The position numbers were made by a program, and so were the translations under genes. The notes below the pieces were generated by a model, which saw only the letters and a list, made by a program, of their open reading frames with translations, did no database searches and was not told the DNA's origin. Positions 45,421 to 46,067 of a DNA stretch of 64,000 nt are shown here, piece by piece. Each line of letters opens with the position of its first letter. Position 1 is the stretch's first letter. Source of the DNA: a virus (taxonomy: Duplodnaviria; Caudoviricetes); the IMG/VR virus record IMGVR_UViG_3300013121_000034, positions 1 to 64,000 of that record; one strand, written 5' to 3'.

Positions 45421-45453
45421 GGGTCCGTAGCTCAGTGGTAGAGCATCTGACTT
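45421..45453 (+). tRNA. 5' half of an interrupted tRNA (probably Lys)
   Basis: GGGTCCG TA GCTC AGTGGTA GAGC A TCTGA CTT; pairs with 46026-46067. Confidence 0.85.
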
Positions 45454-46025
45454 AAAAGGGCTGGTAGCTCAGTGGTAGAGCAGCGAACTTTTAATTCGCA
45501 TGTCGAGGGTTCAATTCCCTCCCAGCCCTCCAAGTCTAATTTTAGACACAATGGTTAGTAACCAAAAGGTCTAAAAATGAAGAAGCCTGACTATCACGCA
45601 AAAGATAAAGGAACATTGGGTGAAATTGCGGTTGCAAAATACTTAATGCAAATGGGAATACCAACGTTTGTAGATATGGGTGATAATACAAAGGTAGATT
45701 TAATCGCATTAAAAAATGATGTGCCCATAAAAATTCAAGTAAAAGCATACAAGAGACAAAAAGGAAAATCTAACGTTATTGTATACAATACAAAAACAGG
45801 TCCCGGATATAAGTATCGTTACAAAGAAAAAGATTTTGATGTTATGGCAGTCTATCTATATGAAATAGATGAATTATTCTTTATATGCATTCAAGATTTA
45901 CTCAAAGTGAAAACATCTATGGTAATTCGATTAAAGAAACCAAAAAATAATCAAAAGAAAAATCTAAATTTAGTAGATAAATACCGTTCATTTAATAGAG
46001 CGGTTAAAAGGGCAGGATTAATCTG
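45454..46025 (+). mobile_element. Insertion in a tRNA anticodon loop carrying a replacement tRNA and an endonuclease
   Basis: 572 nt insert; its removal restores a complete cloverleaf. Confidence 0.8.
45458..45532 (+). tRNA. tRNA-Lys(UUU), intact, nested inside the split tRNA
   Basis: GGGCTGG/CCAGCCC acceptor, GCGAA-CTTTTAA-TTCGC anticodon arm, GAGGG-TTCAATT-CCCTC T arm, encoded CCA. Confidence 0.95.
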
Positions 46026-46029
46026 TTAA
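45577..46029 (+). CDS. PD-(D/E)XK homing endonuclease, I-Ssp6803I-like
   Basis: KGTLGEIAVAKYL...DLI......KIQVK...Y....FDVMAVY; 150 aa; very AT-rich. Confidence 0.85.
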   Translation: MKKPDYHAKDKGTLGEIAVAKYLMQMGIPTFVDMGDNTKVDLIALKNDVPIKIQVKAYKRQKGKSNVIVYNTKTGPGYKYRYKEKDFDVMAVYLYEIDELFFICIQDLLKVKTSMVIRLKKPKNNQKKNLNLVDKYRSFNRAVKRAGLIC

Positions 46030-46067
46030 TCAGGGGGTCGTAGGTTCGAAACCTACCGGACTCACCA
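46026..46067 (+). tRNA. 3' half of the interrupted tRNA
   Basis: TTAA TCAGG GGGTC GTAGG TTCGAAA CCTAC CGGACTC A CCA. Confidence 0.85.

Follow-up and report, generated by a model that had tools for sequence, protein, structure and literature searches.

How can an endonuclease gene persist inside a tRNA gene that it splits, if the insert offers nothing to splice it out? Homing endonucleases are thought to persist in essential genes only through removal of an intron or intein from the product. The question is raised by positions 45421–46067 of a 64,000-nt stretch of DNA from an uncultured large phage (hereafter the window), the first 64 kb of a 129,023-bp IMG/VR virus record with a GC content of 51% and an estimated completeness of ~48%. 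Here a tRNA-Lys(UUU) gene is broken in its anticodon loop by a 572-nt insert that consists of AAAA, a second and intact tRNA-Lys(UUU) gene, a 44-nt leader and a 150-codon open reading frame (ORF) for a homing endonuclease. The locus points to a possible alternative to intron or intein removal, in which the element destroys the gene and brings a replacement. We favour, as the probable explanation, that a resident tRNA-Lys(UUU) gene was invaded between nucleotides 34 and 35 by a foreign, ribozyme-less cassette carrying a second tRNA-Lys(UUU) gene and an endonuclease gene, that this cassette would have arrived by repair copying, and that the cargo tRNA would have been swapped for the broken one. 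The features of the locus are as follows.

45411–45419, + strand: left arm of an inverted repeat, CATCGAATG, 9 bp, perfect (repeat search, 100% complementary)
45421–45453, + strand: E1, the 5′ part of the outer tRNA-Lys(UUU), comprising the acceptor strand, D arm, 5′ anticodon-stem strand and loop CUU (cloverleaf join; nhmmer profile positions 1–34)
45452–45464, + strand: left copy of a 13-nt direct repeat, TTAAAAGGGCTGG, comprising the end of E1, AAAA and the first 7 nt of the inner tRNA
45454–45457, + strand: AAAA linker from E1 to the inner tRNA, within the left 13-nt repeat copy (direct reading)
45458–45532, + strand: inner, intact tRNA-Lys(UUU) with encoded CCA and discriminator U73, the cargo of the insert (ARAGORN, Rfam tRNA, fold)
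45533–45576, + strand: 44-nt hairpin leader, ending at the ATG (repeat search, folding, leader comparison)
45577–46029, + strand: PD-(D/E)XK homing endonuclease gene, 150 aa, GC ~30% (PF11645, PDB 2OST)
46004–46016, + strand: right copy of the 13-nt direct repeat, TTAAAAGGGCAGG, in the 3′ end of the endonuclease gene, where it codes for VKRAG
46018–46033, + strand: right junction with tandem 8-mers TTAATCTG/TTAATCAG (direct reading, marginal significance)
46026–46067, + strand: E2, the 3′ part of the outer tRNA-Lys(UUU), nt 35–76, comprising UUAA, the 3′ anticodon-stem strand, variable loop, T arm, acceptor strand, A73 and CCA
46066–46074, + strand: right arm of the inverted repeat, CATTCGATG, 9 bp (repeat search)

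Every element was found where the original prediction had placed it, and its anatomy of the locus was correct in every detail. The GC content is 0.23–0.35 in the endonuclease ORF, compared with ~0.5 in the flanks. Given a composition of ~30% GC against 51% for the genome, we conclude that the cassette is, by this measure, foreign to the phage. The only intact tRNA genes across the 129-kb record are those for Lys(UUU) and Gln(UUG), and no second intact tRNA-Lys gene was found in the record besides the inner copy.

We joined the two halves of the outer gene and examined the product with ARAGORN. The joined halves form a 75-nt tRNA in which all four stems are paired, confirming the full cloverleaf predicted for 45421–45453 plus 46026–46067; ARAGORN in intron mode did not detect the outer tRNA. 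Two joins are possible according to ARAGORN: CTT^TTAA gives Lys(UUU), and CT^GTTAA gives Asn(GUU). The original prediction had left this junction ambiguous, with a preference for Lys on the basis of the tRNA body. Three observations resolve it to Lys and rule out the Asn(GUU) reading. First, the uninterrupted anticodon arm occurs in nine viral tRNAs, two Lys with A73 and seven Asn with G73, and the outer gene has A73. Second, a tRNA-Lys profile built with nhmmer from 46 phage tRNA-Lys(UUU) genes places E1 at positions 1–34 and E2 at positions 35–74, putting the break at 34/35. Third, the G that precedes UUAA is the last base of the group I intron in the relatives described below. The TAA stop codon of the endonuclease gene (46027–46029) corresponds to U36-A37-A38 of the outer anticodon loop and so lies within the 3′ tRNA half, as had been noted. 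The outer tRNA is flanked by the perfect 9-bp inverted repeat (45411–45419/46066–46074), and since this repeat brackets E1 and E2 we consider the two halves to be one resident unit. The inverted repeat also prolongs the outer acceptor helix through the 5′ leader and 3′ trailer, and it may have a role in precursor processing.

The ORF at 45577–46029 matches PF11645 (PDDEXK_5) with 68.6 bits against a cut-off of 26.1, residues 7–137 aligning with profile positions 2–136 of 138, and it matches I-Ssp6803I (PDB 2OST, chain 2OST_A) with an E value of 7.9e-6. Assignment to the I-Ssp6803I type, made originally from the sequence, is thus borne out. The residues G35, D36, D41, Q54, K56 and D88 are invariant in 49 relatives and are all kept in the window protein. 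Given the full Pfam coverage and the retention of all invariant residues, we conclude that the predicted endonuclease is intact. An identical protein is recorded on three contigs (JGI, ENA and Logan), one carrier being a 206-kb contig. The closest homologue is P0002, with 59% identity, followed on the protein tree by the free-standing genes of loci L066, L051 and L052; a P0002-based search of viral contigs gave a single locus, with 30% identity. Relatives of the enzyme in cultured phages are ≤33% identical and none belongs to the tRNA-Lys clade, and the DNA of the locus matches cultured phages through generic tRNA similarity only.

Upstream of the ORF, the leader forms an imperfect hairpin with arms at 45540–45557 and 45559–45576 around a central palindrome, GGTTAGTAACC (45553–45563), and folds with −11.6 kcal/mol (z −1.8). 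A motif related to this palindrome, GATTA(C/G)TAATC, precedes many relatives of the gene (leaders of L008–L030 and others), both in phage introns and in free-standing form. The palindrome within the hairpin may be a translational control hairpin or an operator. No sigma-70-like promoter was found in positions 45200–46300.

To place the insertion site in the context of the family, we used ~115 loci from protein searches of viral contigs, metagenomes and metagenome-assembled genomes (MAGs), some contigs being redundant between collections. Contexts were classed for the first 111 loci with scripts combining ARAGORN, nhmmer and tblastn. The gene lies inside an intron that splits tRNA-Lys at 38 of the 111 loci, is free-standing 45–60 nt 3′ of an intact tRNA-Lys(UUU) at 31, and lies directly 5′ of tRNA-Lys(UUU) at 28, the ORF often running into the tRNA; one locus (L004) has a tRNA-Lys on either side of the endonuclease gene. 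At L017 (2645–3429), L031 (2669–3354) and L090 (1179–1917), tRNA-Lys is split by an ORF-less insert of ~190–200 nt that carries the family 3′ intron-end motif, and a free-standing gene follows ~50–100 nt after. The intronic relatives (L008, L012, L042–L048, L054, L058, L122 and others) are 31–46% identical to the window enzyme; they occupy position 34/35, in some cases 35/36, in phages, Chloroflexota and the candidate phyla radiation (CPR), including Peregrinibacteria MAGs. Consistent with the proposal that the window insert sits at a homing site, relatives thus occupy the same tRNA-Lys position inside group I introns, and ~25 split tRNA-Lys genes have the layout stem/CUU…G/UUAA/stem with the break at 34/35, as in the window. 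Intron-split tRNAs of phage and metagenome contigs have the anticodon UUU, and those of L047, L048, L076, L082, L087 and L120, a group with Chloroflexota MAGs among its members, have CUU; where Chloroflexota and Peregrinibacteria MAGs have an intronic gene, the anticodon is CUU or UUU. The ORF frequently extends across the 3′ region of the ribozyme, such that the conserved RNA motif GTCCAGACCACAAC appears as the peptide VQTTT; in L008, L083 and L065, all of them intronic, its stop codon is the loop UAA, as in the window. Intronic and free-standing contexts are interspersed on the protein tree, indicating many moves of the gene into and out of the intron. Judged by these contexts, we conclude that this PDDEXK_5 clade is specialised on tRNA-Lys, in intronic as well as free-standing form.

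We searched the insert for a group I ribozyme in several ways. Rfam gave no match to Intron_gpI (RF00028) in positions 45000–46500, even at E ≤ 10. Rfam is weak for ORF-bearing introns, its control matches in relatives reaching just 23–27 bits, and the stronger test is provided by nhmmer profiles derived from the 5′ core (20 loci) and the 3′ intron end of the relatives themselves. These family profiles recognise 38–40 relatives (5′ core, E 1e-20 to 1e-39; 3′ end, E 1e-8 to 1e-18) and had no match in the window at E ≤ 10. Neither the conserved intron end GTGGTAGG nor a vestige of either core was found in the window. The insert contains ~119–127 nt of non-coding DNA, all of it before the ATG and 75 nt of it tRNA, with 0 nt after the stop; relatives have 175–190 nt from exon to ORF plus a 3′ part of 50–70 nt, and a core takes up ~180–250 nt in these relatives. 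The space count, the Rfam scan and the family profiles therefore agree with the earlier statement that there is no room for a ribozyme core: the insert has neither a group I catalytic core (P3–P9) nor the length of non-coding RNA for one. The 5′ exon does end in U and the insert in G (…CUU/AAAA…; …CUG/UUAA), which is group I-like but weak alone. On the strength of the profile searches and the space count, we conclude that the insert is ribozyme-less. Consequently, the outer gene is most likely dead and would yield no tRNA, given also that RNase P would leave four extra A residues on E1 and that the 3′ junction has no defined cut. The outer halves are undecayed, with perfect stems.

The inner tRNA scores 76 bits against the Rfam tRNA threshold of 29, is called Lys(UUU) by ARAGORN and folds as a cloverleaf in context. 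It probably supplies tRNA-Lys(UUU) in place of the broken gene. E1 and the inner tRNA are identical at 24 of 27 nt over the D arm, including an identical stretch of 19 nt; every stem outside the D arm differs between the two genes, which argues against a recent duplication. Of all tRNAs in the set, the one most like the inner tRNA is the tRNA-Lys beside L066 (81% identity; background median 63%, 95th percentile 74%), and the L066 enzyme belongs to the sister group of the window enzyme. It is a reasonable inference that the inner tRNA would compensate for the loss of the outer one and would resist cleavage. I-Ssp6803I recognises a 23-bp pseudo-palindromic site with uneven fidelity (PMC3384342). 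The endonuclease itself (45577–46026) is 17% lysine, with 18 AAA and 7 AAG codons, which are read by the accompanying tRNA; in the long ORFs of the phage the two codons are used near-equally (AAA 1223, AAG 1123).

The cassette is bounded by short repeats. The 13-mer TTAAAAGGGC(T/A)GG has exactly two copies in 64 kb, at 45452 and 46004, with a spacing of 552 nt. Its chance expectation is 0.07, and it was reached in 0 of 100 local shuffles; the pair of 13-mers reported near the ends of the insert is thus real and non-random by both measures. Such microhomology is not shared in general by the other loci at which tRNA-Lys precedes the endonuclease gene. At the right junction, ATCTG (46021–46025) repeats nt 26–30 of the outer tRNA (45445–45449), and together with the tandem 8-mers it may be a repair footprint, at marginal significance. 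The arrangement is like that of the phage T6 SegB unit discussed below, in that the gene lies outside an intron, a tRNA-Lys is located 44 nt upstream, and 13 nt of microhomology mark the edges of the unit.

These observations suggest the following course of events. The enzyme would cut intact outer-type tRNA-Lys alleles in the anticodon region, and the break would be repaired by copying of the tRNA and endonuclease unit from a co-infecting donor via short homologies. The 13-nt repeat, which links the 5′ edge of the tRNA and the 3′ end of the endonuclease gene, would be the footprint of this repair. The donor could have been a free-standing pair, or part (slightly over one unit) of a tandem array. 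Only the inner tRNA, which would now be the sole tRNA-Lys of the phage, would then be released by RNase P and 3′ processing. In a cross, a relative whose outer gene is intact would receive the whole cassette through the flanking homology, and the tRNA-Lys of this recipient would be replaced by the cargo copy. Since the recipient would thereby gain a tRNA-Lys, insertion would cost little even without splicing. The spare tRNA may be a selected strategy or the by-product of one illegitimate repair event.

The original prediction had called for a search for a half-tRNA, tRNA, PDDEXK_5 gene and half-tRNA in succession. An intact tRNA between two complete halves occurs in the window only, with no second pristine case among the ~115 loci; the search did return one decayed-looking and one partial case. 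L079 (1350–1933) has a 26-nt tRNA 5′ end (GGAATCG and the D arm), TTTTTT, an intact tRNA-Lys, a leader, the endonuclease gene and a 19-nt tRNA 3′ end, and the acceptor strands of its outer remnants pair at 7 of 7 positions, followed by ACCA. By its layout, it looks like an older, trimmed copy of the nested arrangement in the window. L068 (1364–1953) has an intact tRNA-Lys and the endonuclease gene, with an orphan variable loop, T arm and acceptor strand immediately past the stop, and looks, on the same grounds, like a partial, older version. An extra viral scan with a 49-sequence alignment gave four new loci and no nested case. A different type of insert is found at L107 (1434–1978), where tRNA-Lys(UUU) is split by the endonuclease gene alone, with ~30 nt before and ~20 nt after the ORF. 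L107 has no match to the ribozyme profiles; its insert ends (AGGGATGC… and …AGCACCTAGG) can pair as a rod that prolongs the anticodon stem, and its 3′ junction has a GGTAGG intron-end vestige and extra T residues.

Several points weigh against invasion by a tRNA-carrying cassette. The pristine nested form is a singleton among ~115 loci. No relatives of the flanking proteins (44947–45375 and 46097–46366) were found in viral contigs, no viral or metagenome contig contains the E1 33-mer exactly, and searches of these contigs found neither an empty allele nor a close phage relative, so that the insertion is read from one sequence. The tRNAs adjacent to sister endonucleases are mostly unrelated, which does not support long-term co-travel of the tRNA and the endonuclease gene. 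We conclude from this comparison that such co-travel is occasional and not the rule, and it follows that the pair seldom moves together. As for cleavage resistance, the inner and outer genes have the whole anticodon loop and the D arm in common, and their main difference lies in the anticodon stem (6 of 17 positions), so that resistance of the inner gene is putative. L107 hints that ribozyme-less phage tRNA inserts may be common, leaving room for another splicing route. Lastly, the 3′ junction, with G before UUAA and the stop in the loop, looks intron-inherited.

This last point favours a different history, in which the insert is a degenerate mobile intron whose 5′ core was replaced by tRNA-Lys through recombination with a free-standing tRNA and endonuclease locus, with one homologous exchange within the leader or ORF plus an illegitimate exchange at the 5′ splice site, and whose 3′ core was deleted in frame. 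Such an origin would account for the U at the end of the 5′ exon and the G just before UUAA, and for a stop codon that is the loop UAA, as in the intron forms L008, L083 and L065. It would also fit the frequent switches indicated by the intermixing of intron and free-standing forms on the tree, and the ribozyme-less insert of L107, which sits at the same site and has kept its GGTAGG vestige. However, it requires at least two rearrangements and an interval without a functional tRNA-Lys, no core vestige or GTGGTAGG end is present in the window, and the nearest relatives of the enzyme are free-standing, not intronic. It also gives the 13-nt repeat no role. We consider this history unlikely, although it accounts for the 3′ junction.

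A by-product of local rearrangement, in which the enzyme cut the tRNA genes of its own genome and short-homology recombination left tRNA copies behind, would make the nesting independent of mobility. There is a precedent in the tandem tRNA-Tyr and segB units that arise via microhomology in T6 (PMC13096335), and the window has microhomology of a like kind at a 552-nt spacing, as well as the 24 of 27 nt common to E1 and the inner tRNA over the D arm. The divergence of the two tRNAs in every stem outside the D arm shows, however, that they are not recent duplicates; moreover, the composition of the cassette is foreign, and the break is at the homing position of the family rather than at a repeat boundary. 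We therefore regard local rearrangement as improbable.

Still more doubtful is an undescribed type of intron, with the outer tRNA matured by proteins (RNase P, 3′ processing, trimming and an RNA ligase). In favour of such a mechanism, both outer halves are undecayed, and conserved tRNA introns of Lak megaphages may encode a tRNA and have intron-plus and intron-minus alleles (PMC6784885). Yet RNase P would leave E1 with its four extra A residues, the 3′ junction, 497 nt past the inner tRNA, has no cut mark, and a cofold of E1 and AAAA with the 3′ end of the insert and E2 gave no bulge-helix-bulge or other helix at the insert ends. No RtcB, T4 Rnl1-type or Rnl2-type RNA ligase was found in the 129-kb record, which is ~48% complete, in a search whose Rnl1 control matched nowhere, which gives this negative little weight. 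An assembly chimera of two tRNA-Lys loci is hardly credible: this is a metagenome assembly and the 19-nt identical D arm could mislead an assembler, but a chimera would not give complementary halves, a bracketing 9-bp inverted repeat and a split at the homing site, and the identical protein is on three contigs from three sources.

Beyond invasion of this one gene by a tRNA-carrying cassette, we tentatively suggest a wider possibility, namely that the cassette belongs to a self-sufficient 'tRNA-swap' homing element. Such an element would cut resident tRNA-Lys loops and install its own tRNA-Lys and endonuclease gene, with no need of a ribozyme; it would be recurrent (L079 and L068 being older, trimmed copies), and would be one source of the common phage pairs in which an endonuclease gene follows tRNA-Lys and, after loss of that gene, of inserts of the Lak type. 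If this were true, phages would have a horizontal route for trading tRNA-Lys alleles, among them alleles that evade the anticodon nucleases of the host.

Some further tRNA-like sequences were observed in the window and in the comparative set. In the window, at 61174–61474, GCGGGTATGGCGGAAATGGTAGACGC resembles the acceptor strand and D arm of a class II tRNA and ends abruptly. The ORFs behind it (61202–61474 and 61450–61746) have no Pfam match, and an intact tRNA-Gln follows ~290 nt on, at 61764–61838; this region may be a second, decayed insertion in a phage tRNA gene. L028 (1468–1540), L029 (2864–2935), L115 (1374–1444) and L143 (1368–1440) have an atypical tRNA-Lys(UUU) beside the endonuclease gene, its D arm being GAAGCATT…GTGATGC and its T loop lacking the TTC motif, e.g. 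GGCGCAACTCC; those of L115 and L143 are missed by ARAGORN and are known from tRNA-Lys profile matches only. At L066 (1400–1497), a tRNA-like element lies directly 5′ of the endonuclease gene, with acceptor pairing CCGACCT…AGGTCGG, a canonical T arm and no ARAGORN call.

Much of what the locus contains is already known: the enzyme family, homing into tRNA anticodons, free-standing endonucleases in phage tRNA clusters, intronless homing, and a tRNA-containing insert in a phage tRNA gene. In the literature searched, outside which most subscription journals lie, we found no account of an endonuclease cassette, devoid of a ribozyme, whose insertion breaks a tRNA gene and whose cargo includes a complete gene for that isoacceptor, of a tRNA-Lys-specific PDDEXK_5 clade with both intronic and free-standing members, or of group I introns in tRNA-Lys. 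If our reading is true, it would explain why many phage tRNA arrays have a member of this endonuclease family beside tRNA-Lys. A single stretch of 650 nt would hold both the target gene and its presumed immune counterpart. The comparative set has one endonuclease family in every state of the cycle between intron and free-standing gene, and is thus useful for models of endonuclease invasion.

Among the closest known systems is I-Ssp6803I, with the group I intron of Synechocystis tRNA-fMet (PDB 2OST; Bonocora and Shub 2001 and Zhao et al. 2007, as cited in PMC3384342 and PMC3984707). The two have in common the PF11645 family, a pseudo-palindromic target in a tRNA anticodon stem-loop and an insert in the anticodon loop. 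In the window, however, the target is tRNA-Lys rather than tRNA-fMet, there is no ribozyme, a complete tRNA gene is aboard, and the setting is a phage. The tRNA-Lys group I introns of our set (L008, L012, L042–L048 and others) resemble the window in insertion point, in having a homologous enzyme and in that some of their ORFs end on the loop UAA; the family profiles detect in them a 5′ core of ~130 nt as well as a 3′ part of ~50–70 nt, whereas the window has neither, and a tRNA takes the place of the 5′ core.

SegB of phages T4 and T6 is a free-standing GIY-YIG endonuclease that is encoded in a tRNA gene cluster and cuts within tRNA genes (PMC2330249, PMC13096335). In T6, SegB amplifies a 718-bp unit of tRNA-Tyr and segB via microhomology that links the 5′ end of the tRNA gene with the 3′ end of segB (PMC13096335). 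The window similarly has an endonuclease gene beside a tRNA gene, and microhomology of the tRNA 5′ end with the endonuclease gene 3′ end bounds the unit. SegB differs in its nuclease fold, the T4/T6 unit is not nested in a tRNA gene, and its amplification is in tandem and selected by a defence system.

Lak megaphages have 'enigmatic' tRNA introns, one of which possibly encodes a tRNA (Devoto et al. 2019, PMC6784885). As in the window, a phage tRNA gene is broken by an insert that contains a tRNA-like gene; the Lak introns are tRNA-sized and no endonuclease gene is reported for them, whereas the window carries an intact one. The endonuclease in the window suggests how inserts of the Lak type could arise and, if our reading is true, would give an origin for these unexplained tRNA-containing tRNA introns of megaphages.

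Two further systems concern how a homing gene and its host gene coexist. Models of collaborative (trans) homing and of endonuclease-gene invasion have been reviewed (PMC3984707). Collaborative homing likewise involves a free-standing endonuclease whose target is the intron site, and illegitimate repair, and its layout is seen in L017, L031 and L090; in the window, by contrast, the gene landed in the target itself without an intron, and the damage would be offset by a cargo gene. In 'fractured genes', a free-standing endonuclease gene interrupts a protein gene, and split inteins restore its function (PMC2677866). There too, an essential gene is split by an endonuclease gene and its function is kept by a device other than an intron. 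The rescue of a fractured gene is protein trans-splicing of the same gene, whereas that in the window would be replacement by a second gene copy, which, if true, would be a third solution to the host-damage problem of homing elements.

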